A DNA stretch of 64,000 bases from contig JAVEEI010000131.1 in the NCBI GenBank assembly GCA_030840525.1, forward strand, positions 526 to 64,525, in the 5' to 3' direction. This document shows positions 13,743 to 31,316 of this stretch, piece after piece. Every line of letters begins with the position of its first letter. Within the stretch, counting starts at the first letter, position 1. The notes beneath the pieces were generated by a model. That model was given only the letters and a program-made list of their open reading frames with translations. It was not told where the DNA came from and searched no databases. This DNA is from Frankiaceae bacterium. Its GTDB lineage: Bacteria; Actinomycetota; Actinomycetes; JAFAQI01. The position numbers and the translations under genes are program-made.

Positions 13743-15245
13743 ATGTCGACGGCGCACCTCGACCTCGCCTTGCTGGCGGGCGCCGGGGTGCTGCTCGCCG
13801 CGGTCGCGGGGGTCAGGCTGTCGTCGCGGCTCGGCGTGCCCAGCCTGCTGCTGTACCTCGGTCTCGGCATCCTGCTGGGCGAGGACGTCATCGGCGTACG
13901 GTTCGACGACCCCGCGCTCGCCCGCAACATGGGGCTGGTCGCGCTTGCCCTGATCGTTGCCGAGGGCGGCCTCACCACCGAGTGGGCGGTCATCCGGCCG
14001 GTACTGCCGGCGGCCGTCGCGCTGTCGACGGTCGGGGTCGCGGTCAGCGTCGCCGTCATGGCCGCCGTCACCCATCTCGTCCTCGGCCTGCCTTGGCGGG
14101 CGGCCGTCGTGGCCGGCGCGGTCGTCTCGTCCACCGATGCGGCGGCGGTGTTCGCGACCCTGCGGTCGTTGCGGCTGCCGGCGCGGCTCGTCGGCGTCCT
14201 CGAGGCCGAGTCCGGGCTGAACGACGCCCCCGTCGTGATCCTCGCGACCTTGTTGTCGACCGGGCACTCCGGCGCCGGCAATGTCGCGGCGCACGTCGGC
14301 TACGAGCTGGCCGTCGGGGCCGGCATCGGTGTCGCGGCCGGGGTTCTCGGCGCCTCGGGGCTGCGGCGGGCGGCGCTACCGGCGGTCGGGCTATACCCGA
14401 TCGCGACGCTCGGCGTGGCGATCGCGTCGTACGCCGCGGCCGCGAGCGCGGCGGCGAGCGGGTTCCTCGCGGTTTATGTGACCGCGCTCATCCTCGGCAA
14501 CGCCACCCTGCCGCACCGGCGGGCGACGCTCGGGTTCGCGAACGGGGTCGCTTGGTTGGCGCAGATCGGGTTGTTCGTCATGCTCGGGCTGCTGGTCACG
14601 CCGAGCCGGCTCGGGTCGGCGCTGCTGCCGGCGCTCGCGATCGGGGCGGCCCTGCTCGTGGTCGCGCGACCGCTGTCGGTCGCAGCGAGCACTGTCGGGT
14701 TCCGGTTCGGCTGGAGGCCGCAGGTGCTCGTCGCGCTCGCCGGGCTGCGCGGCGCGGCGCCGATCGTGCTCGCGACGATTCCGCTGTCGGCGCACGTGAG
14801 CGGAGCGCGCCGGCTCTTCGACGTCGTGTTCGTGCTCGTCGCGGCGTTGACGTTGCTGCAGTCGCCATTGCTCGCGCCGGCGGCCCGGCGGCTGCGGCTC
14901 GTCGACGACGACGCCGGTCGCGACCTCGACGTCGAGGCAGCGCCGCTGGACCGGATGCTCGCCGACCTCGTGACGGTGACGATCGGCTCCCGGTCGAAGC
15001 TGCACGGCGTCGAGGTCTGGGAGCTGCGCTTGCCGCCGACGGCGGCGGTCGCGTTCGTGGTCCGCGCGGGCGAGGGCTTCGTGCCGGACCGGCGTACGAC
15101 GCTGCGTCATGGCGACGACCTGCTCGTCGTGGTCGCCCGCGCGGAGCGGGCCGCGGTCGAGCAGCGACTGCGTGCGGTGGCGCGCGACGGCCGGCTCGCG
15201 CCGTTGCCTGCCGCTGCCGCCGCACCCCGGCCGCGGCGACGGTGA
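13743..15245 (+). CDS. K+/H+ (cation/proton) antiporter, CPA1/NhaP2 family, with C-terminal TrkA-C-like domain
   Basis: Multi-TM N-terminal domain (GLGILLGEDVIGVRFDDP..., LEAESGLNDAPVVILATLL) and a regulatory C-terminus. A GTG at 13722 is an alternative start. Confidence 0.8.
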   Translation: MSTAHLDLALLAGAGVLLAAVAGVRLSSRLGVPSLLLYLGLGILLGEDVIGVRFDDPALARNMGLVALALIVAEGGLTTEWAVIRPVLPAAVALSTVGVAVSVAVMAAVTHLVLGLPWRAAVVAGAVVSSTDAAAVFATLRSLRLPARLVGVLEAESGLNDAPVVILATLLSTGHSGAGNVAAHVGYELAVGAGIGVAAGVLGASGLRRAALPAVGLYPIATLGVAIASYAAAASAAASGFLAVYVTALILGNATLPHRRATLGFANGVAWLAQIGLFVMLGLLVTPSRLGSALLPALAIGAALLVVARPLSVAASTVGFRFGWRPQVLVALAGLRGAAPIVLATIPLSAHVSGARRLFDVVFVLVAALTLLQSPLLAPAARRLRLVDDDAGRDLDVEAAPLDRMLADLVTVTIGSRSKLHGVEVWELRLPPTAAVAFVVRAGEGFVPDRRTTLRHGDDLLVVVARAERAAVEQRLRAVARDGRLAPLPAAAAAPRPRRR

Positions 15246-15261
15246 CGCCACCGGCAAATGG

Positions 15262-15480
15262 GTGACGTGCGCGACGGGCGCATCGGCACCCGTCGGCGGC
15301 ATCGCACGCGGGTGGACGCGACGCGCGACGGACGCATCGGCAAGTTGGCGGCATCGCGCGCGGGTGGACGCGGCGCGCGACGGACGCATCGGCAAGTTGG
15401 CGGCATGCCACGCGGGTGGCGCGCGCGACACACGCGCCGGCACCGTTGGCGCCATGGGCACGCGGGTGGGGTGCGCGCCG
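15262..15480. repeat. Intergenic tandem repeat, about 52-bp unit, two near-identical copies (15298-15349, 15350-15401) flanked by degenerate partial copies
   Basis: Unit ggcatcgc[a/g]cgcgggtggacgc[g/a][a/g]cgcgcgacggacgcatcggcaagttggc seen directly. It lies between the antiporter stop and the next gene's start. Confidence 0.7.
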
Positions 15481-15602: not shown

Positions 15603-16403
15603 ATGGAGCGCGGGTGCCGCCGCAGGGGTCGCCGGAATGGCGGGCCGGGCGGGCCGGTTGGCCCCATCGTGACGTCGTCTCGCGGGCCGGTCCGCGTTGT
15701 ACCGACACTCCCCTGGTCGGCAACGTCGCGGTGGCGGCCACGGCCGTCCTCGCTGCCCGTACTGCTTGTCGGCCTATGGATCTTCGGTACCGGCGAGGCG
15801 CTGCTGGTCGCATCCCGGTGGGGGAACACGCCGTGGACGGTGCTGGCCGAAGGGGTCAGCCGGCACAGCCCGCTGTCGATCGGCGGGGCCACGCTCGTGA
15901 TCAGCGCCGTGGTGCTGCTCGGCTGGATTCCGCTGCGCGAGCGACCGGGGCTGGGGACCGTGGCGAACGCCGTGGTCATCGCGGTCGCGATCGACGTCGT
16001 ACTCGACGTGCTGCCGCGCCAGCACCACCCGCTCGGGCAGGCCGGCTTCGTCGTAGCCGGCATCGCCGCGATCGGGATCGGCAGCGCGCTCTACCTCACC
16101 GCCGCGCTCGGGCCGGGGCCGCGCGACGGCTGGATGACCGGCCTGGCCCGCCGGTTCGACCTGCCGCTCGCCTGGGTACGGCTTGGCCTCGAACTCACGG
16201 TTATGGTCGCCGGGCTGGTGCTCGGCGGGCGGGCCGGCGTCGGTACGGCGGCGTTCGCGCTGACCATCGGGTACGCCGTGACCACGACGATGTGGCTGCT
16301 CGACGCAGCGGCAGGGACTCCGGGGCGCCGACGACGGCGACCGGCGGGCGAGGCAGCCAGCGAGACGGCCGGAGCCACCGCGAGCTCGGTAACCGCTCGC
16401 TAG
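15603..16403 (+). CDS. YczE/YitT-like integral membrane protein
   Basis: Four or more hydrophobic helices (LPVLLVGLWIFGTGEALLV; ATLVISAVVLLGWIPL; GIAAIGIGSALYLTAALG). The ATG at 15603 is the first in-frame ATG downstream of the repeat, and the start is uncertain. Confidence 0.5.
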   Translation: MERGCRRRGRRNGGPGGPVGPIVTSSRGPVRVVPTLPWSATSRWRPRPSSLPVLLVGLWIFGTGEALLVASRWGNTPWTVLAEGVSRHSPLSIGGATLVISAVVLLGWIPLRERPGLGTVANAVVIAVAIDVVLDVLPRQHHPLGQAGFVVAGIAAIGIGSALYLTAALGPGPRDGWMTGLARRFDLPLAWVRLGLELTVMVAGLVLGGRAGVGTAAFALTIGYAVTTTMWLLDAAAGTPGRRRRRPAGEAASETAGATASSVTAR

Positions 16404-17119
16404 GTGATCTCGAGCAGCTTCTCGCGTACCGCGTAGACGACGGCTTCCATCCGCGAGTGCAGCTGGAGCTTCTCCAGGATGTTGCGGATGTGGTTCTTGA
16501 CCGTGTTCTCGCTGATGAACAACTGCTTGGCGATGTCGCGGTTGTTGAGGCCTTTGGCGACCAGCCGCAGCACCTCCATCTCGCGGTCGGTGAGCCGCGG
16601 CGCCGGCACCTGCTGCCGCTCGTCGCCGCGCTTGATCATCGTCGCGAACTCGTTGAGCAGCTTCGAGGCCATCGACGGCGAGATGAGCGACTGCCCGCCG
16701 TGCACGGCCCGGATCGCCGCGGCGACCTCTTCGACCGGGATCTCCTTGAGCAGGTAGCCCATCGCGCCGGCCTTGATCGCGTCGTAGAGGTCGGCCTCCT
16801 CGTCGCTGATCGTGAGCATGATGATCTTGACGCTCGGGACCGCGTCCTTGATCGCCGTGCAGGCGTCGATGCCGCCCCGCTTCGGCATCCGCACGTCCAT
16901 CAGCACGATGTCGGGGGTCGTCTCGACCGTCTTCTGCACCGCTTCGGCCCCGTCTTCGGCCTCGCCGACGACGTCGATGTCGGGCTCCTGCTCGAGGACC
17001 ATCTCCAGGCCGCGCCGGAACAGCGCGTGGTCGTCGACGACGAGCACGCGGATCGGCTCGCCGCTCACAGCGGCGCTGGGCGCGACGCTTTCGGGCGTCT
17101 CGGTCACTCGTTCTCCCAC
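16400..17119 (-). CDS. Two-component response regulator, NarL/LuxR family (REC + LuxR HTH)
   Basis: IRVLVVDDHALFRRGLEMVL receiver domain with D...MDVRMP, and a C-terminal LuxR HTH (LTDREMEVLRLVAKGLNNRDIAKQLFISENTVKNHIRNIL). GTG start; an internal start 5-19 codons downstream is possible. Confidence 0.85.
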   Translation of the reverse strand: MGERVTETPESVAPSAAVSGEPIRVLVVDDHALFRRGLEMVLEQEPDIDVVGEAEDGAEAVQKTVETTPDIVLMDVRMPKRGGIDACTAIKDAVPSVKIIMLTISDEEADLYDAIKAGAMGYLLKEIPVEEVAAAIRAVHGGQSLISPSMASKLLNEFATMIKRGDERQQVPAPRLTDREMEVLRLVAKGLNNRDIAKQLFISENTVKNHIRNILEKLQLHSRMEAVVYAVREKLLEIT

Positions 17120-20354: not shown

Positions 20355-21922
20355 CGCTCGCCTCCGGCCGCGGCTCCGGTACGTCGACCTGCTCCGCGGG
20401 CCCGAGCGACAGCGGCGGCTCGCCGATGTCGTCACCGGCCCGCCACGGCAACGTCAGCCGGAACACCGAGCCCGCGCCGACCTCGCCCCACGCCTGCAAC
20501 CACCCGCCGTGCAGCCGCGCGTCTTCGAGCGCGATCGACAGCCCGAGCCCGGTGCCGCCGGACGTGCGCGCACGGGCCGGGTCGGCCCGCCAGAAACGAC
20601 CGAATACCAACGACGTCTCGCCCGGGCGGAGGCCACGGCCGCGGTCGCGCACGGTCACGCAGACGCCGCCGTCGCCGCCGCGAAGGCACACCTCGACCGG
20701 CTGCCCGTCGCCGTGCTCGACGGCGTTGACCAGCAGGTTGCGCAGCACGCGGTCGATCCGGCGCGCGTCGACCTCGACGATCACCGGCTCGTCCGGGAGG
20801 TCGAGTACGAGCGAGCAGTCCCGACGCTCGGCGATCGGCGTCGCGGCAGCGGCCGCCCGGTTGACGAGCGAACGAAGGTCGACCGACTCGGCGTCGAGGA
20901 CGACCGCGCCGGCGTCGTGCCGGCTGATCTCGAGCAGGTCGGCGAGCAACGCCTCGAACCGGTCGAGCTCGTTCTGCAGCAGCTCGGCCGAGCGGGCGAG
21001 CTCCGGCGTCATCTTGGTGCGCGACTCGTGCAGCACGTCGGCGGCCATCCGGATCGTCGTGATCGGCGTGCGCAGCTCGTGCGACACGTCGGCGACGAAC
21101 CGGCGTTGCACGCGCGACAGCTCGCGCAGCTGCGAGATCTGCTTCTCGACGGTCTCCGCCATCCGGTTGAACGACGACGCGAGGCTCGCGAGGTCGTCCT
21201 CGCCGCGGACGTACATCCGGTCGCGCAACCGACCGGCCGCAAGCCGTTCCGCGGTCGCCGCGGCATGCCGCACCGGGCGGACGACCTGGCGCGTGACCAC
21301 CGCGGTGATCACGACGAGCAGCAGCACGATGAGAAGCCCGGACAGCAGCATCGTCCGCTCGACGAGGTAGAGCGTCTGCTGCTCCTGCGCGAGCGGGAAC
21401 AGGTAGTAGAGCTGGTAGCCAGCGGTGCTGCTCGCGACTGTGCCGCCGACGACGAGCACCGGCCGGTGACCGGGCGACAGAGCCGTGTACGCCCACGCCT
21501 CGCGGTTGTACCGGGTCACGGCCTGCCGCAACGCCGCCGGCACCGTCGCCGGCTGGAACTCGCTCGCGGTCGTCTCCGACTCGTCGTTCGGGTCGGTCGC
21601 CAGCAGCAGGACGTCGTACGAGTCGGACGTCGTACTGCGGTCGCGCAGCTCGCTGATGATGACGCTCGCCGTCCGGCTCGCACTCGCGGCGTCCGCGGTC
21701 TCGACGGCGGAGAGCTGGTCGGTCGCGCGTTGCAGGCCGAAGTCGAGCTGCGACAGCGACGACCGTTGCTTCGCGTCGAGTACGCCGTTGCGGATCTGCT
21801 GCAGCAGCAGGATGCCGAGCAGCAGCACGACCAGGCCCGACAGCAGGAACGTCGTGACCGCGACCCGGGTCTGCAGCGATCCCCGCCAGCGGTGCAGCAC
21901 CCGCGCGCCGAGCTCGCCGATC
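20347..21922 (-). CDS. mtrB: Sensor histidine kinase MtrB
   Basis: ATG (MIGELGARVL) at 21922 overlaps the mtrA stop. Two TM helices, a HAMP domain, an H-box (ADVSHELRTPITTI) and an ATPase G-boxes (GTGLGLSIA). Confidence 0.85.
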
Positions 21923-22602
21923 ATGGCGGTCCGGCTTTGTAGCCGACCCCCCGTACGGTCACGACGATCTCGGGGCGCTCGGGGTCGCGTTCGATCTTCG
22001 CCCGCAGCCGCTGCACGTGCACGTTGACGAGCCGGGTGTCGGCCGCGTGCCGGTAGCCCCACACCTGCTCGAGCAGGTGCTCGCGGGTGAACACGTGGCC
22101 GGGCTTGCGGGCGAGTGCCGTCAGCAGGTCGAACTCCAGCGGTGTCAGGCTGATCGCCTTGCCGTCGCGCGACACGACGTGACCCGCGGTGTCGATGACG
22201 AGGTCGGCGATCTCGACGACCTCGTTGGTCGGGACCTCGTTGCGCCGCAGTCGCGCGCGCATCCGCGCGACGAGCTCCTTCGGCTTGAACGGCTTGACGA
22301 TGTAGTCGTCGGCGCCGGACTCGAGGCCGAGGACGACGTCGACCGTGTCGCCGCGCGCGGTGAGCATGACGATCGGCGTACCGCTCTCCGCGCGGATCTG
22401 CCGGCATACGTCGATGCCGTCGGTGCCCGGCAGCATCAGGTCGAGCAGGACGAGATCCGGCTTGGTCGCCCGGAACGCGGCCAGCGCGCGGTCGCCGTCG
22501 GCGACGAACGACGGCTCGAAGCCCTCGGTGCGCAAGACGATGCCCAGCATCTCGGCGAGAGCCGGGTCGTCGTCGACGACGAGCACGCGTCCTTTGGCCA
22601 CG
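21921..22602 (-). CDS. mtrA: Response regulator MtrA (OmpR family)
   Basis: RVLVVDDDPALAEMLGIVLRTEGF receiver domain and a winged-helix C-terminus (VHVQRLRAKIE...VTVRGVGYKA). GTG at 22602. Confidence 0.9.
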
Positions 22603-22675
22603 CATCCATCGTCGCATCCGTCGCGCGTTTCGCGCGGTCGTCTGCCAGGATGGCCCGCGCGAGAGGAGGTACCCG

Positions 22676-23806
22676 GTGACAGGGTGGAGCGCGCCCGAGG
22701 GCGCCGGACCGGTCCCGCCGGCCGCACCCGGCGAGACGGCCCCGAGCCCGCCGTACGTCCCCCCGCCCGGTACGGCGTACGGCGCACCGCCGTACGGCTA
22801 CGGCGCGACGGCGTACGGGTACGGGTACGGCGCGCCGCCGCGGCCGGAGGCACCGCGGCCGGGCATCGTCCCGCTGCGGCCGCTCGGTGTCGGCGAGGTG
22901 CTCGACGGGTCGTTCACGGCCATCCGCACCGCGCCGCTCGCGTCGCTGGGCTACGCGGCGATCGTCATGCTCGTCTACCAGGCGATCTTCCTGCTGCTCA
23001 ACTACACCGTCCTGCGGCCGGCCACGACGACGAACGTCGACGGGTCGACCGTCAGCGACGCGGGCGACGCGGCTGCGCGCGTCGGCGCGGTCTACATCGC
23101 GACGGCCGTCTTCACATCCATCGCGTTGCTCGTGTTGACCGGCGTCATGGCTGCCGTCGTCGGCGAGCGGATCATGGGCCGCCGGGTCACGTGGACGGTC
23201 GCGCGCGACCGGTTGCGTCCGGTCGCGTGGCCGTTGTTGCGCGTCGTCGGCGCGGTGACCTTCATCGTCGCCGGCACGGTCGCCGTCGCGTTGGGTCCCG
23301 GCATCGCGCTCTCGGTCACCGGCTCCAACAGCGGTGGCCCGGCTCTGTTGGCCATCGGCTTCCTGCTGCTCGTGGTGCCGGTGATCTACGCATGGACGAC
23401 GCTGTCGCTCGCGCCCGCGGCGGTCGTTCTCGAACGGCGAGGTGCGCGCGCGGCGCTGCGCCGGTCGCGCAAGCTGGCGCATGGCGGGTGGTGGCGGGTC
23501 TTCTGGATCAGCCTGTTGGCGTGGGTCACCGCGTCGATCGTCGGAACCATACTTTCGTTGCCGTTCCTCATCTTCGGCGGCGGCCTGAGCGACATCTTCG
23601 CCGGCCGGTCGGACAACCTGTCCTTCGTCGTCCTGCTGATGCGAGCGCTCGGCGGGTTCGTCGCCGGGACGCTGGCGCGGCCGTTCCAGGGCGGTGTCTC
23701 GGCGCTGCTCTACATCGACCGCCGGATGCGCGCGGAGGGCCTCGACATGGCGTTGCAAGCCGCCAACGCCGAGGCGTCGACGGCGAACGGCGCGGCCGGC
23801 GCGTGA
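22676..23806 (+). CDS. Conserved polytopic membrane protein (first gene of the MoxR/DUF58 cluster)
   Basis: GTG preceded by gagaggagg. Low-complexity Pro/Gly/Tyr N-terminus (YGAPPYGYGATAYGYGYGAPP), then at least six TM helices. Confidence 0.6.
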   Translation: MTGWSAPEGAGPVPPAAPGETAPSPPYVPPPGTAYGAPPYGYGATAYGYGYGAPPRPEAPRPGIVPLRPLGVGEVLDGSFTAIRTAPLASLGYAAIVMLVYQAIFLLLNYTVLRPATTTNVDGSTVSDAGDAAARVGAVYIATAVFTSIALLVLTGVMAAVVGERIMGRRVTWTVARDRLRPVAWPLLRVVGAVTFIVAGTVAVALGPGIALSVTGSNSGGPALLAIGFLLLVVPVIYAWTTLSLAPAAVVLERRGARAALRRSRKLAHGGWWRVFWISLLAWVTASIVGTILSLPFLIFGGGLSDIFAGRSDNLSFVVLLMRALGGFVAGTLARPFQGGVSALLYIDRRMRAEGLDMALQAANAEASTANGAAGA

Positions 23807-24450
23807 CGGCGTACCCGATCCTCGCCGGCCTCGGCATGGACCCGGTCAACCGCGACGACGCACGCCGCCGCGCGCGCGAGGAGCTGTCGCACGCGGTCTA
23901 CCACCGCTACGACGACTCGTGGCCGGTGCGCGCGGTGAAGGCCGTCGAGCACGCACTCGATAACGCGTTCAACGCGGCCGCCTCGCACTCGCCGGGCGGC
24001 GGCGCCGGCGCGATCGTCTTCCTGGCTTTGCTGGTCGCCCTCGTCGCGTTCGCGCGCTGGCGGCTCGGCCCGACGTCGCGGCGCGCGCACGTGTCGCTCG
24101 ACGTGCTCGCCGACACGACCATGACCGCGGCCGAGCACCGCCGGCGTGCCGACGCAGCGGCCGGCGACGGCGACTGGAAGACGGCCGTCGTCGAGCGGAT
24201 GCGCGCGCTCGCCCGCGGCCTCGAAGAGCGCGCGGTCCTCGACCCGCGGCCGGGCCGCACCGCCGACGAGCTCGCAGCCGAAGGAGGCCGGGTGCTGCCG
24301 GCCGCGCGCGAGTCGCTCGCGACCGCGGCCGCGACGTTCGACGCCGTCGTGTACGGCGACCGGGCGGCGAGCGCCGACGACCACGACGCGGTACGTCGCG
24401 GCGACGAGGCCGCGGCCGCCGCTCGGCCGGTCGAGCTGAGCACCGTATGA
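23803..24450 (+). CDS. DUF4129-like protein
   Basis: GTGA overlap with the upstream gene. Position and size match the DUF4129 partner in conserved MoxR clusters. One TM helix. Confidence 0.5.
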   Translation: MTAYPILAGLGMDPVNRDDARRRAREELSHAVYHRYDDSWPVRAVKAVEHALDNAFNAAASHSPGGGAGAIVFLALLVALVAFARWRLGPTSRRAHVSLDVLADTTMTAAEHRRRADAAAGDGDWKTAVVERMRALARGLEERAVLDPRPGRTADELAAEGGRVLPAARESLATAAATFDAVVYGDRAASADDHDAVRRGDEAAAAARPVELSTV

Positions 24451-25664
24451 GCCCAGGTATGAGCACAGCTATGAGCACAGCCGTCGCCGAGTCCCCGGCG
24501 GAGACCCGACCAGCGGGTCCGCCGTACGACGAACCGCCCGCCCCGGACTTCGCCGGGTGGCTGCGCCGGGCGTGGCGGCCGGTGCTGCTCGTCGCTCTCG
24601 TCGTCGCGACCGCGGTCGGGCTGGCGGTCGTCGGGTCGGCGCCGGTCGCGCGGCCGCTCGACCCCACCGACGCGTCGCCCGACGGCGCGCGCGCAATCGT
24701 CGCGTTGCTGCGCCAGCAAGGTGTCGAGGTACAGACGGCCGACAGCGTCGACGCGCTCACCTCGTCGGGTGACGCGACCGTCGTCGTCTCGGTACCCGAC
24801 GTCCTCGGGCCGAGCCAGCTCGCCAGCCTGTCCGCGACCGACAGCGACCTCGTCCTCATCGCGCCCGGCGACGACGCGCTGTCGATGCTCGGCCTTCCGG
24901 TGCACGAGGCCGGCGACGTCGCCGCGGACAAGGTCGGGCCGCACTGCGACCTGCCGGCGGCGACGTCGGCCGGCACGATCACCGTCGACGGGCCGGTCTA
25001 CACGGCGAGCGGCGACGTCGCGCAGAGCTGCTACCCGGTCGCGGGCGAGCACGCCGTCGTCGTCACGAAAGGGCCGGCCGGCAACAAGGTCACCGTCGTC
25101 GGGTCGCGGGCGGTGTTCGCCAACCGCACCCTCGGCGACGACGGCAACGCGGCGCTCGCCCTCGGCCTGCTCTCCGACCACCCGCGCCTCGCCTGGCTGA
25201 TCCCCGTCGCGCCGACGGAGGCGACCGACACCCAGCGGCACGGCCTGTTCGAGCTGCTGCCGGGCCGGCTCGGATGGGCGTTGCTCGAGGTCGGCGTCGC
25301 GTTGCTGCTGTTCGCGGTGAGCCGGGCCCGCCGGCTCGGACCGCTCGTCGCCGAGCCGCTGCCCGTCGTCGTACGTGCCACCGAGACGGTCGAGGGCCGC
25401 GCCCGGCTGCTTCGCGGCGCGCGGGCCCGCGGGTCCGGCGCCGACGCGCTGCGCGCCGCGGCCCGGCGCCGGCTCGGGACGAGGCTCGGGCTCGGCGCCG
25501 CGCCCGACCGGGCCGCGCTCGTCGACCGCGTCGTCGCGCGCACCGGCCGCGGCGCCGACGACGTGTCCGATTTGCTGTACGGTTCCTCCCCGGCAGACGA
25601 CCGCGGCCTGGTCGCGCTCGCGACCGCACTGGACCGGCTCGAAGAGGAGATGCGCCGACAGTGA
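24447..25664 (+). CDS. DUF4350-like protein
   Basis: ATGA overlap. N-terminal TM helix, a periplasmic-type domain and a second TM helix near the C-terminus. Conserved position upstream of MoxR. Confidence 0.55.
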   Translation: MSPGMSTAMSTAVAESPAETRPAGPPYDEPPAPDFAGWLRRAWRPVLLVALVVATAVGLAVVGSAPVARPLDPTDASPDGARAIVALLRQQGVEVQTADSVDALTSSGDATVVVSVPDVLGPSQLASLSATDSDLVLIAPGDDALSMLGLPVHEAGDVAADKVGPHCDLPAATSAGTITVDGPVYTASGDVAQSCYPVAGEHAVVVTKGPAGNKVTVVGSRAVFANRTLGDDGNAALALGLLSDHPRLAWLIPVAPTEATDTQRHGLFELLPGRLGWALLEVGVALLLFAVSRARRLGPLVAEPLPVVVRATETVEGRARLLRGARARGSGADALRAAARRRLGTRLGLGAAPDRAALVDRVVARTGRGADDVSDLLYGSSPADDRGLVALATALDRLEEEMRRQ

Positions 25665-26650
25665 CAACAGCTCGCCGTACCGGTTCTCGTGCCGTCACCG
25701 AGGACGACGCGCGCGCCGCGCTGACCGCGGTCCGGACCGAGGTCGCGAAAGCGGTCGTCGGGCAGGACGCCGTCGTCACCGGCCTCGTCATCGCGCTGCT
25801 CTGCCGCGGCCACGTACTGCTCGAAGGCGTGCCGGGTGTCGCGAAAACACTGCTGATCCGCGCCCTCGCGGCGTCGCTCTCGCTCGACAACAAGCGGGTG
25901 CAGTTCACCCCCGACCTGATGCCCGGCGACGTGACGGGATCGCTGGTGTACGACGCACGCACCGCGCGGTTCGAGTTCCACGACGGCCCGGTATTCACCA
26001 ACCTGTTGCTCGCAGACGAGATCAACCGCACCCCGCCGAAGACGCAGGCCGCCCTGCTCGAAGCGATGGAGGAGCGGCAGGTCACCGTCGAGGGCGCCGC
26101 GCGGCCGCTGCCCGAGCCGTTCCTCGTCGCGGCGACCCAGAACCCGGTCGAGTACGAGGGGACCTACCGGCTGCCCGAGGCGCAGCTCGACCGGTTCCTG
26201 ATGAAGCTCGTCGTGCCGCTGCCCGACCGCGACAGCGAGATCGACATCCTCACCCGCCACCACGACGGCTTCGACCCGCGCGACCTCGCCGGCGCCGGCG
26301 TGCGGCCGGTGGCCGGCCGCCCCGAGCTCGACGCCGGCCGCGCCGCCGCCAACGCCGTCACGGTCACCCCTGAGGTCCTCGGGTACGTCGTCGACCTGTG
26401 CCGGGCGACGCGGTCGGCGCCGTCGCTGTCGCTCGGGGTCTCGCCGCGCGGTGCGACGTACCTGCTCGCCGCCGCGAAGGCGTGGGCGTGGCTGTCCGGC
26501 CGCGACTTCCTCACCCCGGACGACGTGAAGGCGCTGGCCCGGCCGGTGCTGCGGCACCGGGTGCAGCTGCGGCCCGAAGCCGAGCTCGAAGGCGCGTCGA
26601 CCGACGGCGTCCTCGACGGGGTGCTGGCCGCGGTCCCGGTACCGCGCTGA
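25661..26650 (+). CDS. MoxR-family AAA+ ATPase
   Basis: Walker A (GVPGVAKT), Walker B (LLADEINR), sensor region and a C-terminal lid typical of MoxR. GTGA overlap. Confidence 0.9.
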   Translation: MTTARRTGSRAVTEDDARAALTAVRTEVAKAVVGQDAVVTGLVIALLCRGHVLLEGVPGVAKTLLIRALAASLSLDNKRVQFTPDLMPGDVTGSLVYDARTARFEFHDGPVFTNLLLADEINRTPPKTQAALLEAMEERQVTVEGAARPLPEPFLVAATQNPVEYEGTYRLPEAQLDRFLMKLVVPLPDRDSEIDILTRHHDGFDPRDLAGAGVRPVAGRPELDAGRAAANAVTVTPEVLGYVVDLCRATRSAPSLSLGVSPRGATYLLAAAKAWAWLSGRDFLTPDDVKALARPVLRHRVQLRPEAELEGASTDGVLDGVLAAVPVPR

Positions 26651-26651
26651 C

Positions 26652-27947
26652 GTGGCCCTCACCGGCCGGGTCGGACTGGTCGCGCTCGTCGCGACGCTGC
26701 TCGTCTGGGCCGTGCCCGCCGACGGCTACACGGTCGCGTGGGTCGCGGCCGCTCTCGTCGCCGGCATCGTCGCCGACCTCGTGCTCGCGGCGTCGCCGCG
26801 CGCGCTGACGGTGCAGCGCGCCCCGGAGCTGACGACCCGGCTCGGCGAGACCGTCGACTCGCCGCTCGTCGTGCACAACCACGGCCGCCGCCGCGCCCGC
26901 GGGAGGCTGCGCGACGGCTGGCCGCCGAGCGCGTCCGCCCGGCCGCGCGCCGCCGCCCTCGACATCGGCCCGCTCGACCGGCAGCGCGTCGTCATCCGGG
27001 TGTCGCCGCAACGCCGCGGCGAGACGGCGAGCGAGAAGGTGACGGTGCGCCTGGTCGGGCCGCTGGGGCTGGCGGCGCGGCAGCGCACCCGTAGCTGCCC
27101 CGGACAGATCCGGGTGCTGCCCGCGTTCACCAGCCGCAAGCTGCTGCCGGAGAAGCTCACCCGGCTGCGCCAGCTCGAAGGCGAGGTGGTCGCGCCGGTC
27201 CGCGGCCAGGGCACCGAGTTCGACTCGCTGCGGGAGTACGTCGTCGGCGACGACCCGCGGTCGATCGACTGGCGGGCGACCGCGCGGCGGGCCGACGTCG
27301 TCGTCCGCACCTGGCGGCCGGAACGCGACCGGCACGTCGTCCTGGTGCTCGACACCGGGCGCACGTCGGCCGCGCGCGTCGCGGGGGCGCCGCGGCTGGA
27401 GACGGCCCTCGACGCCGCGCTGCTGATGACCGCGCTCGCGCGTCATGCGGGTGACCGTGTGACCGTGCTCGCGCACGACGTGCGGCTCCGCGCGGCCGTC
27501 GACGCGGGGCGCGGCGGCGGCGCGCTGGCCGCGGTCGTCGCGGCGACGACCGGCCTGCAGCCTGCGCTGGTCGAGACCGACATGGCCGCGGTCGTCACGC
27601 AGGTGTTGCGCCGGGTGCGCCAGCGTGCGCTGGTCGTCCTGCTCACCGCGATGGACCCCGCGCCGGTGTCGGAAGGCCTGCTGCCCGCGGTCCCGAGCCT
27701 GGTACGCCGGCACACCGTGCTCGTCGCGTCGATCGCCGACCCCGCGGTCGACGCGATGGCCGCCGGTCGCGGCGACGCGGAGGCCGTCTACGCCGCGGCC
27801 GCGGCCGAGGCGACGCGGACCGAGCGCGCCGATGTCGCCGCGGCGCTGCGGCGGCGCGGCGTCGACGTACTCGAAGCTCCACCCGCGACGTTCGCGTCTA
27901 AGCTCGCCGACGCTTACTTGGATTTGAAGGCCTCCGGGCTGCTCTGA
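26652..27947 (+). CDS. DUF58 (VWA-like) domain protein
   Basis: Immediately follows MoxR. N-terminal TM hairpin, then DSLREYVVGDDPRSIDWRATARR...VVLVLDTGRTSAA (degenerate MIDAS-like). Confidence 0.8.
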   Translation: MALTGRVGLVALVATLLVWAVPADGYTVAWVAAALVAGIVADLVLAASPRALTVQRAPELTTRLGETVDSPLVVHNHGRRRARGRLRDGWPPSASARPRAAALDIGPLDRQRVVIRVSPQRRGETASEKVTVRLVGPLGLAARQRTRSCPGQIRVLPAFTSRKLLPEKLTRLRQLEGEVVAPVRGQGTEFDSLREYVVGDDPRSIDWRATARRADVVVRTWRPERDRHVVLVLDTGRTSAARVAGAPRLETALDAALLMTALARHAGDRVTVLAHDVRLRAAVDAGRGGGALAAVVAATTGLQPALVETDMAAVVTQVLRRVRQRALVVLLTAMDPAPVSEGLLPAVPSLVRRHTVLVASIADPAVDAMAAGRGDAEAVYAAAAAEATRTERADVAAALRRRGVDVLEAPPATFASKLADAYLDLKASGLL

Positions 27948-27952
27948 GTCGG

Positions 27953-28990
27953 CTAGCCGGCGACCGGCGCGACGTCGCCGCGCAGGTCCGCGTCGAGGTC
28001 ACCGGTCTCACCGGCGCGCACCGCCCGCCGGCCGAGGACCACGACGTACGTCAGGAACGCGACCTCGACGACCGCGCCGATCGCGATCCGCAGCCACGTC
28101 GGCAGCGACGACGGCGTCACGAACGCCTCGATCATCCCGGACACGGCGAGTACGACGACGAGACCGAGGGCGATGGTGACGGTCGAGCGGCCCTCCTCGG
28201 CGAGCGCCTGCGGCCGCGACCGCGGGCCGGGATCGATGATCGTCCAGCCGAGCTTCAGCCCGGCGCCGGCGGCGATGAAAACAGCGGTGAGCTCGAGCAG
28301 CCCGTGTGGGGTGATGAGACCGAAGAACTCGCCGGCCTTGCCGGCCGCGACCATGTAGCCGCCGGCGACGCCGAGGTTGGCCGCGTTGACGAACAGCGAC
28401 CACAGCGTGAGCGTTCCGAGCGCGAGTCCGCCGACGAGAACTTGCGCGCTGACCCACACGTTGTTGGTCCAGACCCGCGCCGCGAAGTCGTGCGCCGGGC
28501 TCGCGCTGTAGTAGTGCGAGAACTCGGAGTTGACGAGCTGCCGCACCTCCTCCGGCGGCAGCAACGACCGCTGCACGCTCGGGTGCGTGTCGATCCAGAA
28601 GCCGAGCGCGAACGCGACGAGTAGCGACCCGACCGCCGCGCCGATCCACCAACCCCGGGTCCGGTAGACGACCGCGGGGAACGTCGTCGTGAAGAACGTG
28701 ACCAGCTGCCGCCACGCCGGCGCGTGGCTGCCCGCCACGACCGACCGCGACTGCGCGACCAGCCGGGAGAGGCGGCCGACGAGCTGCGGGTCCGGCGACC
28801 GGGTCTGCACGATCGACAGGTGCGTCGCCGTCCGCTGGTAGAGCGCCACGATCTCGGCGACCTCGTCGTCGGCCAGCCGCGACGGCCGCGCCGCCCGGCG
28901 GACGAGCAGCTCCAGCCGGCTCCACTCGCCGCGATGTGCCACGACGAACGCATCGATGTCCACGGGGCAGACTAACGGCGTGAGCACCAA
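27953..28990 (-). CDS. Stage II sporulation protein M-like (DUF95) integral membrane protein
   Basis: Polytopic membrane protein convergent with the MoxR operon and divergent from the RDD gene. The start is uncertain, either 28990 or a GTG near 28963. Confidence 0.6.
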   Translation of the reverse strand: MVLTPLVCPVDIDAFVVAHRGEWSRLELLVRRAARPSRLADDEVAEIVALYQRTATHLSIVQTRSPDPQLVGRLSRLVAQSRSVVAGSHAPAWRQLVTFFTTTFPAVVYRTRGWWIGAAVGSLLVAFALGFWIDTHPSVQRSLLPPEEVRQLVNSEFSHYYSASPAHDFAARVWTNNVWVSAQVLVGGLALGTLTLWSLFVNAANLGVAGGYMVAAGKAGEFFGLITPHGLLELTAVFIAAGAGLKLGWTIIDPGPRSRPQALAEEGRSTVTIALGLVVVLAVSGMIEAFVTPSSLPTWLRIAIGAVVEVAFLTYVVVLGRRAVRAGETGDLDADLRGDVAPVAG

Positions 28991-29870
28991 TGGTGGCTAC
29001 CTCGGCACGCCGATCGTCACCGGCGAGGCCGTCGCGCTCGACCTGCGGCCGGCCGGTGTCGCGACCCGCGCGCGCGCCGTCGTCATCGACCTCGCGGTGC
29101 AGTTCGCGTTGTTGCTCGTCGCGTCGTTGCTGCTGTTCCGGTTCGCGTTCAGCTCCGACACGGCGGCGTACGCGGCCATCGCGGTCTCGCTGTACGTGCT
29201 GGTGCTGCTCGGGTATCCCGTGCTGTTCGAGACGCTGACCCGCGGCCGCACCCTCGGCAAGATGGCCCTCGGCTTGCGGGTGGTCCGCGACGACGGCGGG
29301 CCGATCCGGTTCCGGCACGCACTTGTCCGCGCGCTCGTCGGCGTGGTCGTCGAGAAGCCCGGTATCTCGTTCGGGTCGGTCGCGCTGATCACGATGCTGG
29401 TCAGCCGGACCGGCAAGCGGCTCGGCGACATGGCCGCCGGCACCGTCGTCCTCCAGGAGCGGATCCCGGTGCGCGTCGCCGCCCCGCCGGACATGCCGCC
29501 CGCGCTCGCCGGGTGGGCGAGCGGCCTCGACCTGTCCGGCGTCGGCGACGAGCTCGCGTTGCGGGTCCGCCAGTTCCTGGCCCGCGCGCACGAGCTCGAC
29601 CCGTCGGCGCGGGAGACGATCGGCACCGGTCTCGTCGCCGAGATCGCCGGCCGTACGTCGGCACCCATCCCGCCGGGCGTCCCCGGCTGGGCCTACCTCG
29701 CCGCCGTACTCGCCGAGCGGCGCAACCGGGAGCTGTCGCGGGCCGCGGCGGTCACGCCGGCCACCCCCGCTAACCCGGCGCCGTGGTCGCCGTTGCCGGT
29801 GCCGCCGGCTCCGGTCGTGCCGCCGACGCCACCGCCGCCGGCCGGCGACGGCTTCGCCCCGCCGGGCTAG
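28956..29870 (+). CDS. RDD family membrane protein
   Basis: RDD motif context (RGRTLGKMALGLRVVRDDGGPIRF), three TM helices and a Pro-rich C-terminus. Confidence 0.7.
   Translation: MSTGQTNGVSTNGGYLGTPIVTGEAVALDLRPAGVATRARAVVIDLAVQFALLLVASLLLFRFAFSSDTAAYAAIAVSLYVLVLLGYPVLFETLTRGRTLGKMALGLRVVRDDGGPIRFRHALVRALVGVVVEKPGISFGSVALITMLVSRTGKRLGDMAAGTVVLQERIPVRVAAPPDMPPALAGWASGLDLSGVGDELALRVRQFLARAHELDPSARETIGTGLVAEIAGRTSAPIPPGVPGWAYLAAVLAERRNRELSRAAAVTPATPANPAPWSPLPVPPAPVVPPTPPPPAGDGFAPPG

Positions 29871-31316
<1,446 letters not shown>

Follow-up and report, generated by a model that had tools for sequence, protein, structure and literature searches.

We describe here a block of seven genes, termed g1 to g7, located at positions 22676-29870 of a 64,000-nucleotide stretch of DNA from a Frankiaceae bacterium (contig JAVEEI010000131.1 of assembly GCA_030840525.1; the whole stretch is called the window in the following). 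Five plus-strand genes encode, in this order, a polytopic membrane protein (g1), a DUF4129 protein (g2), a DUF4350 protein (g3), a MoxR-type AAA+ ATPase (g4) and a DUF58 protein (g5). They are followed by the genes of a SpoIIM-like (g6) and an RDD-family membrane protein (g7). The block is a member of the MRP-type MoxR-DUF58 operon family, the orthologue of a mycobacterial cluster and the bacterial counterpart of an archaeal gene neighbourhood, and not a new kind of system. For its function we tentatively favour a model in which the encoded proteins form a membrane-bound machine of the MoxR-vWA type that would remodel its own co-encoded membrane clients at the cell envelope.

Gene content and chaining of the block

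Genes were called from the codon-position GC profile, in which the third codon position (GC3) picks the reading frames; the G+C content of the window is about 74%. This profile delineated the seven genes of the block, whose products are deposited at NCBI as MDQ1747564-70 from a metagenome-assembled 'Frankiaceae bacterium'.

Families were assigned by a Pfam scan with curated cut-offs, which g2 to g7 all pass. The scan identified DUF4129 (PF13559) in g2 (2e-13, 50.5 bits versus a cut-off of 24.8), DUF4350 (PF14258) in g3 (7e-30, above the cut-off), AAA_3 (PF07726, 1e-63) together with AAA_lid_2 (PF17863, 9e-26) in g4, DUF58 (PF01882) in g5 (1e-21, 77.5 bits versus 23.4, with a weak additional VWA_2 match), SpoIIM (PF01944) in g6 (2e-41, 142 bits versus 26.9) and RDD (PF06271) in g7 (6e-19, 69 bits versus 24.1). 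For g6, PF28475 (DUF8413) is also recorded on the identical JGI protein. For g1 the local matches to UPF0259, GPDPase_memb, DUF7847 and DUF975 scored 17-22 bits and stayed under the cut-offs of 28-31. Precomputed PF25231 and PF06790 assignments (DUF7847/UPF0259) are present on a 100%-identical metagenome protein (P0121) and on nearly all orthologues. NCBIfam gave a weak YciC match for g1 and weak chelatase/GvpN-type matches for g4, all far under the cut-offs. The DUF assignments of an earlier, sequence-only reading of this region (the original prediction) thus survived a profile search; its label 'permease-like' for the SpoIIM homologue found no support.

The original prediction had also described g1 to g5 as chained by GTGA or ATGA overlaps or a 1-nt gap. 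Read directly from the letters, the junctions are GTGA for g1/g2, ATGA for g2/g3, GTGA for g3/g4 and a 1-nt gap for g4/g5, such that the chaining stands, with the overlap at g2/g3 depending on the start of g3. Here a 12-nt tandem repeat, TGAGCACAGCTA, present in 3.8 copies at 24437-24481, covers the g2 stop and the g3 start and creates three in-frame ATG codons at 24447, 24459 and 24471. The last of these is the start in the JGI call on an identical gene, and it is also the position to which most orthologues align. Depending on the start, g2 and g3 thus overlap by 4 nt or are separated by 20 nt. In a relative of about 92% identity the repeat is one unit shorter. Since its copy number differs, the N-terminus of g3 and the exact translational coupling vary between close relatives.

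Conservation of the block

A genome scan seeded with an alignment of DUF4350 yielded at least 561 relatives among species representatives, for which the conserved juxtamembrane motif of g3 (see below) proved specific enough. The best 80 loci were kept and examined by tblastn with the window proteins. They come from actinobacteria only and cover about 16 genera, with sampling of Streptomyces, Embleya, Yinghuangia, Catenulispora, Actinomadura, Spirillospora, Jiangella, Amycolatopsis, Lentzea, Prauserella, Kibdelosporangium, Actinophytocola, Pseudonocardia and Mycolicibacterium as well as Kineosporiaceae and Frankiaceae metagenome-assembled genomes. The claimed wide conservation in Actinomycetota is borne out by these 80 species representatives.

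Order and strand of g1 to g5 were identical in all of the about 76 informative loci, and a g1 orthologue was found upstream of g2 wherever the contig extends far enough. The operon, for which a split in most relatives had been named beforehand as a refuting result, is thus unsplit in these relatives. Overlapping or abutting starts were available at 42/77, 73/79, 78/82 and 35/76 of the orthologous positions for the four g1-g5 junctions. The MoxR and DUF58 genes, separated by a single nucleotide in the window, are adjacent in about 70 of 76 loci. The only break seen between them is an insertion of about 2.2 kb in Amycolatopsis (L019:12087-14311 and L023:12087-14304).

Of the 41 loci whose sequence extends 7 kb or more past g5, 38 have the g6/g7 pair downstream of g5, and all 44 pairs seen had g6 on the minus and g7 on the plus strand. 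The distance between g5 and g6 ranged from 0 to about 7 kb. In Streptomyces a full 16S-23S-5S rRNA operon on the minus strand is inserted between g5 and g6/g7 (L050:13455-18627, Streptomyces sp. NBC_01176). Due to this rRNA operon about 15 draft Streptomyces contigs break right after the DUF58 gene (L003, L035, L036, L040, L046, L049, L058, L062-L064, L072, L073, L076, L079 and L081). The variable spacing, the inserted rRNA operon and the separate transcription units of g6 and g7 would be expected if the block consisted of two unrelated units, a five-gene MoxR operon and an independent SpoIIM/RDD pair that are adjacent through synteny alone. We consider this unlikely, because the linkage survives relocation of the block. 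In Pseudonocardiales and Mycolicibacterium g1 to g7 occur together with neither mtrA nor ahcY nearby. In Actinophytocola (L014:1912-3744, L052:810-2754 and L083:6803-9336) g7 has moved and now directly precedes g1 in the same orientation, and g6 still follows g5. In addition, SpoIIM homologues adjoin vWA and MoxR (COG0714) genes in other bacteria (Makarova et al. 2015, PMC5898192). As the block stays together when sited elsewhere, the conserved unit is the seven-gene block and not its position next to mtrA. A tblastn search of g3 against a plasmid collection returned a single match, which was really an actinobacterial chromosome.

Architecture of the encoded proteins

Topologies were derived from hydropathy and positive-inside analysis and from two AlphaFold2 models. 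For g1, g2 and g3 the predicted topology agrees with the earlier description of three membrane-anchored proteins ahead of MoxR.

The MoxR protein g4 carries intact Walker A (GVPGVAKT), Walker B (LLLADE) and sensor motifs, has the ATQNP and SPRG motifs and is nearly invariant among orthologues. It matches PDB entry 2R44, a structural-genomics structure of Cytophaga hutchinsonii MoxR, with 9e-75. This is the only solved relative: sequence and profile searches of the PDB revealed none for DUF58, DUF4129 or DUF4350. Its partner g5 has two transmembrane (TM) helices at residues 3-21 and 28-46, forming an N-terminal hairpin, followed by a predicted cytoplasmic DUF58/vWA-like body. At the position of the metal ion-dependent adhesion site (MIDAS), following a VVLVLD strand, it reads DTGRT (residues 234-238, nt 27351-27365) instead of the canonical DxSxS. 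Among the orthologues D234 is invariant, G236 is conserved in at least 80% and T238 in at least 90%, in a register that is derived from sequence only. No DUF58 paralogues for comparison of the MIDAS were found in the 83 fetched loci.

The g3 protein is predicted to consist of a TM helix, an extracytoplasmic alpha/beta domain, a second TM helix and a cytoplasmic helical tail. The fold of the ectodomain is flavodoxin/GATase1-like and resembles the GIFT domain of IFT52, OST48/WBP1 and GATase1-like proteins, at 11-16% sequence identity to the GIFT-domain proteins GldG, IFT52 and OST48/WBP1. A link of DUF4350 to GldG by HHpred has already been published (PMC5898192), and our fold comparison agrees with it; an ABC transporter partner of GIFT-domain proteins is absent from this block. 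The only invariant polar residues of the ectodomain are D72, C167, C195, Y196 and N226. In the alignment no invariant His was found, and a conserved Cys-His-Glu triad as in class I glutamine amidotransferases is absent. The invariance of C167 and C195 would fit an extracytoplasmic disulfide. The most conserved stretch of g3 across 60 sequences is the juxtamembrane motif RARRLGPxVxEPLPVVVRAxETVEGRARL. Within it residues 302-312 are predicted to be disordered, with a predicted local distance difference test (pLDDT) score below 50. A disordered yet conserved cytoplasmic linear motif of this kind is typical of a docking peptide, a role it may have here.

For g2 a single TM helix, a disordered linker and a five-helix DUF4129 bundle on the cytoplasmic side were predicted, in a very confident AlphaFold2 model. 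The bundle may resemble the HEPN four-helix fold; the Rx4-6H motif of HEPN RNases is absent, and the DUF4129 alignment holds no conserved His. Directly after their TM helices g2 and g3 share a short motif, R-(L/V)-G-(P/T). The tail of g3 as a second DUF4129 domain was not supported (hhalign probability 7%, P=0.005, with the YG region alone aligned).

The g1 protein has about six predicted TM helices with both termini predicted to be cytoplasmic. The low-complexity YG/PP-rich start of this first gene, which the original prediction had pointed out, is real and stems from a 21-nt imperfect tandem repeat (22752-22824). It is preceded by a short N-terminal PGW motif and followed by KPGVIPLRPL. In most genera the N-terminus of g1 comprises P/G plus Y/W repeats (PPGYG, GWG, PGYGQ), such that composition is kept while sequence is not. 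In Actinomadura a short acidic N-terminus takes the place of the P/G-rich segment.

For g6 a cytoplasmic N-domain of about 105 residues ahead of the SpoIIM membrane domain was predicted, and for g7 a three-TM RDD core followed by a C-terminal domain with a Pro-rich tail. SpoIID and SpoIIP, the DMP partners of SpoIIM, were not seen among the annotated genes of the block and of its flanks, with no search of the genome as a whole.

Relation to mycobacterial and MRP-type operons

The same family set in the same arrangement is found in Rv3689-Rv3695 of Mycobacterium tuberculosis, in which Rv3692 is moxR-type, Rv3693 DUF58, Rv3694c SpoIIM-like and Rv3695 RDD, and in the counterparts of M. chelonae and M. 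abscessus. A transcriptome table for M. chelonae maps the set, with the membrane protein, DUF4350, MoxR, DUF58, SpoIIM and RDD, to Rv3689, Rv3691, Rv3692, Rv3693, Rv3694c and Rv3695 (PMC8191103). Mycolicibacterium sphagni (L053) has g1 to g7 in the same order and orientation. In contrast to the block described here, which lies between mtrA and ahcY, the mycobacterial block is located beside glpK; the DUF4350 proteins share about 40% identity.

Full-text literature searches returned no experimental study of this system, only incidental mentions, and the mycobacterial counterpart genes are equally uncharacterised. The earlier description of the system as conserved but uncharacterised thus holds with regard to experiments, although the system has already been recognised, as Rv3689-Rv3695 and through its archaeal analogues. 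Both Rv3694c and Rv3695 were co-purified with Rv0954, a divisome-associated protein (PMC8093794), and slow growth of BCG both requires and induces Rv3691 (PMC2685279). A very strong chromatin immunoprecipitation (ChIP) peak of CRP lies inside Rv3689, and a substitution in Rv3690 occurred in one cycloserine-resistant mutant in which a second mutation was also present.

The block shares with the Bat/RL3499-type MRP operons an AAA_3 MoxR gene that is directly followed by a DUF58 gene. MoxR proteins with vWA cofactors mature specific complexes, and in Rhizobium an intact membrane and cell shape depend on the MRP protein RL3499 (PMC3893208), whose reported phenotypes are envelope-related. A BatA/BatB vWA-TM protein or a TPR protein was not detected in the block by Pfam. 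A defence or conflict system of the MoxR-vWA type was rejected: PADLOC gave no match for the seven proteins, the bpMoxR match (2e-10) is far weaker than that to AAA_3, and the block has a conserved core-genome position.

A model for the MoxR-DUF58 block

In the model that we tentatively favour, DUF58 (g5) would tether a hexamer of MoxR (g4) at the membrane and dock onto the cytoplasmic parts of g2 and g3. For this docking, the post-TM R-(L/V)-G-(P/T) motif, the acidic EPLPVVVRAxETVEG segment and the DUF4129 bundle are candidate sites. ATP hydrolysis would then assemble or conformationally switch a g1-g2-g3 complex, whereby the external, non-catalytic GIFT-like domain may engage or release an envelope ligand, for which a glycan or a partner that handles glycans is most plausible. 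The proteins g6 and g7 would be co-inherited membrane partners, probably scaffolds, and the setting would probably be cell-envelope or septal homeostasis. Support comes from the translational chaining of the genes and from their co-inheritance, including the intact block at other sites and the Actinophytocola rearrangement. The predicted topology puts the MoxR-facing parts into the cytoplasm and DUF4350 outside. Further support is provided by the fold and the two invariant cysteines of the g3 ectodomain, the disordered linear motif of g3, the precedent of other MoxR-vWA pairs, the co-purification with Rv0954, the slow-growth role of Rv3691 and the frequent adjacency to mtrAB-lpqB. The generic part of the model, in which a dedicated MoxR-vWA module acts on the membrane proteins encoded with it, stands on much firmer ground than the part concerning the envelope and glycans. 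The original prediction had proposed maturation of an envelope protein complex, for which the GIFT-like ectodomain, the divisome co-purification of Rv3694c/Rv3695 and the Rhizobium MRP MoxR provide indirect support.

Several points weigh against this model. For none of the seven proteins is there a demonstrated physical interaction, substrate or phenotype. The GIFT fold alone specifies no ligand. By hhalign, g2 and the tail of g3 show no significant similarity (probability 7%), and the post-TM motif common to both is short. Given the non-canonical DTGRT sequence of g5, it is uncertain whether this protein could dock onto an acidic residue through a metal ion. Finally, the co-regulation observed in M. 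chelonae spans the whole contiguous region including glpK/glpF (PMC8191103); being region-wide, it may not reflect a regulon.

A more specific variant, which we regard as a long shot, is an 'inside-out' trans-membrane actuator. Here a MoxR-DUF58 motor tethered at the membrane would grip invariant juxtamembrane peptides that g2 and g3 have in common on the cytoplasmic side, namely x-R-(L/V)-G-(P/T) and then EPLPVVVRAxETVEG. It would thereby mechanically switch an external GIFT domain without catalytic activity, to which a wall glycopolymer or a glycan-handling enzyme would bind, with the nuclease-dead, HEPN-like DUF4129 as a docking or nucleotide-sensing hub. If true, such an actuator would be a new class of ATP-driven envelope control in actinobacteria, alongside MtrAB-LpqB at the septum.

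Among prokaryotic AAA+ systems that lack a known substrate, the MRP-type MoxR-DUF58 operons belong to the most widespread, and the version described here is part of the core of many actinobacteria, Streptomyces and M. tuberculosis among them. A known role would give function to seven 'conserved hypothetical' membrane-associated proteins together and could expose an envelope or division process relevant to antibiotic producers and pathogens. The present analysis refines the list of parts by predicted topologies, a GIFT-like fold of the ectodomain, an invariant motif on the cytoplasmic side, a degenerate MIDAS and the co-inheritance of SpoIIM and RDD, and provides docking hypotheses for tractable relatives; the window itself is no more tractable than model organisms for the question of function.

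Alternative readings of the block

The archaeal arCOG01314 neighbourhoods share with the block the triad of DUF4350, MoxR and vWA/DUF58 as well as an external GldG/flavodoxin-like DUF4350 domain. According to the prediction of Makarova et al. 2015, the archaeal proteins form a complex for secretion or membrane remodelling (PMC5898192). Unlike in the archaeal case, DUF4350 is placed here between two TM helices and continues into a conserved tail in the cytoplasm, where DUF58 is also predicted to reside; DUF7847-like, DUF4129, SpoIIM-like and RDD proteins act as the partners. Applied to our block, the published prediction would make it a novel secretion or membrane-remodelling apparatus, in which MoxR/vWA powers or gates export through a complex of DUF4350 and the membrane proteins. 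Such a reading agrees with the gene set of that prediction (DUF4350, COG0714 and vWA, with SpoIIM beside vWA and COG0714), with the predominance of membrane proteins among the components and with the link of the GldG/GIFT fold to gliding/secretion apparatus. We nevertheless rate it as unlikely, since the block encodes no candidate secreted substrate, pore-former or S-layer/Ig-domain protein, the DUF58 protein is predicted to be cytoplasmic rather than secreted, and MoxR proteins are not known as translocation motors.

The MoxR-DUF58-TgpA/YebA operons likewise combine a MoxR-DUF58 pair with a polytopic membrane partner. Following the Pfam family description, we take the DUF4129 domain to be present in these systems as well; it is otherwise the C-terminal domain of transglutaminase-core proteins. 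In contrast, DUF4129 is here found in a single-pass protein of its own, and the domain flanked by TM helices is GIFT/GATase1-like. The similar set of parts, i.e. a protein with several TM helices, an external domain between TM helices and a TM helix with DUF4129, would allow a role in membrane-proximal quality control or turnover. In such a system a substrate recruited by vWA would be unfolded by MoxR and then processed by a partner, with DUF4129 as the shared adaptor. For MoxR-vWA-transglutaminase operons a role as membrane-proximal degradation systems was inferred by Zhang & Aravind 2012 (PMC3495828). For the present block this is rather improbable: Transglut_core had no match in g1 to g7 at E<=0.01 in Pfam, no peptidase or transglutaminase domain was detected in the seven proteins, and the ectodomain lacks a conserved Cys-His-Glu triad.

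The position of the block next to mtrAB-lpqB leads to a different reading, in which it serves as an accessory input/output module of MtrAB-LpqB that is co-regulated from the 74-bp spacer between mtrA and g1 and modulates MtrB/LpqB signalling. The original prediction had considered the position between mtrAB-lpqB and ahcY possibly informative. It is indeed common, with mtrA divergently upstream in 56 of 69 loci. The spacer is 100% identical to that of the closest relative (L001:8123-8196), whose proteins are about 92% identical, i.e. differ by 8%. The mtrA gene of Streptomyces is leaderless, and a ChIP peak of MtrA is located at -50 (PMC5487470); an equivalent site here would lie within about 25 bp of the g1 start. 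The spacer contains a CGCGCG-TTT-CGCGCG palindrome and GCGACG direct repeats beside the mtrA start, but in a search for an MtrA-type direct repeat the visible repeats could not be tied to a defined MtrA consensus, such that no MtrA motif was found in it. Furthermore, many Streptomyces have an additional 1.3-2 kb between mtrA and g1, and the full g1-g7 set stays intact away from mtrAB in Pseudonocardiales and Mycolicibacterium, as does the M. tuberculosis block beside glpK. We thus give the signalling module little probability. The adjacency to mtrA looks like ancestral synteny, frequent but dispensable for the system. Between mtrA and ahcY (21921-31316 of the window) no thymidylate kinase gene was found; in M. 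tuberculosis tmk (Rv3247c) takes this position, which the seven-gene block occupies here and in many other orders. The distribution suggests that the block was ancestrally located between mtrA and ahcY and resides elsewhere in Mycobacteriales and Pseudonocardiales.

Least probable of all is a chaperone for metal or cofactor insertion into an enzyme encoded elsewhere, with the membrane proteins as auxiliaries: this is the classical role of several MoxR-vWA pairs such as NorQ/NorD, CoxD/CoxE and MoxR with methanol dehydrogenase (PMC3893208), and g4 has a weak NCBIfam similarity to chelatase ATPases, but no linked metalloenzyme target was found in the 80 loci, the MIDAS position is degenerate, and the invariant partners are membrane proteins that lack recognisable metal sites.

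Feature coordinates, flanks and further sequence elements

The positions of the genes and of the elements discussed above are given in Table 1.

Table 1. Coordinates of the genes, motifs and intergenic elements of the block within the window.
Feature	Position	Strand	Details
g1: polytopic membrane protein, DUF7847/UPF0259/GPDPase_memb-like	22676-23806	+	376 aa; GC3 0.93
g2: single-pass membrane protein, C-terminal DUF4129	23803-24450	+	215 aa
g3: DUF4350 protein	24447-25664	+	405 aa; 397 aa if start = 24471
g4: MoxR-type AAA+ ATPase (MRP-like), soluble	25661-26650	+	329 aa
g5: DUF58 protein	26652-27947	+	431 aa
g6: SpoIIM/DUF95-family membrane protein	27953-28963	-	336 aa
g7: RDD-family membrane protein, Pro-rich C-terminal tail	28956-29870	+	304 aa
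g1 low-complexity N-terminus (~62 aa)	22676-22861	+	P/G/Y/A-rich, then KPG(V/I)(I/V)PLRPL
g3 invariant juxtamembrane motif	25323-25409	+	residues 293-321
mtrA-g1 divergent spacer, 74 bp	22602-22675		mtrA GTG at 22601, minus strand
g6/g7 start overlap	28956-28963		g7 ATG vs g6 GTG, opposite strands, ATGTCCAC / GTGGACAT

The spacer upstream of g1 includes a GGAGG ribosome-binding site 7 nt 5' of the g1 GTG. At the other end of the operon g5 and g6 are convergent with a gap of 5 bp, such that g6 is divergent only from g7. The earlier description of divergent SpoIIM-like and RDD genes is therefore correct for their mutual arrangement but not for g6 relative to g5. The starts of g6 and g7 overlap by 8 nt, and the same arrangement is present in the JGI calls for L084 and L001; in other genera the g6-g7 spacer is usually shorter than 130 bp. 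Due to the overlap there is no space for conventional promoters and leaders of both genes. A TAGTCT hexamer is located 5 nt 5' of the g6 GTG, a position that would be compatible with a leaderless g6 transcript. In a consensus scan of 22300-30100 no promoter-like sites were found, and terminator-like sites occurred at chance level.

The Pfam assignments of the flanking genes bear out the previously named neighbours mtrAB-lpqB and ahcY. Upstream, on the minus strand, mtrA, mtrB and lpqB are found, with hpf and secA farther out, and downstream ahcY, a SIS/PGI_C gene and a phosphomannomutase gene. Rfam gave no match across the whole window. A 90-nt 'tRNA-Glu(CTC)' reported by ARAGORN at 24566-24655 lies inside the coding sequence of g3, which has a strong GC3 signal there, and lacks Rfam support; we consider it a false positive.

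Two further tandem repeats were noted outside the block. A 52-nt repeat at 15269-15469 (3.9 copies, 83% matches) is intergenic and lies between a plus-strand gene ending at 15245 and a minus-strand gene for a LuxR-type response regulator (16400-17119). A 39-nt repeat at 40675-40830 (4.1 copies) is probably coding; read on the minus strand it gives Ala/Lys/Pro-rich, AKKAAPPAKKAAA-like repeats, as in the tails of actinobacterial HU/histone-like proteins.

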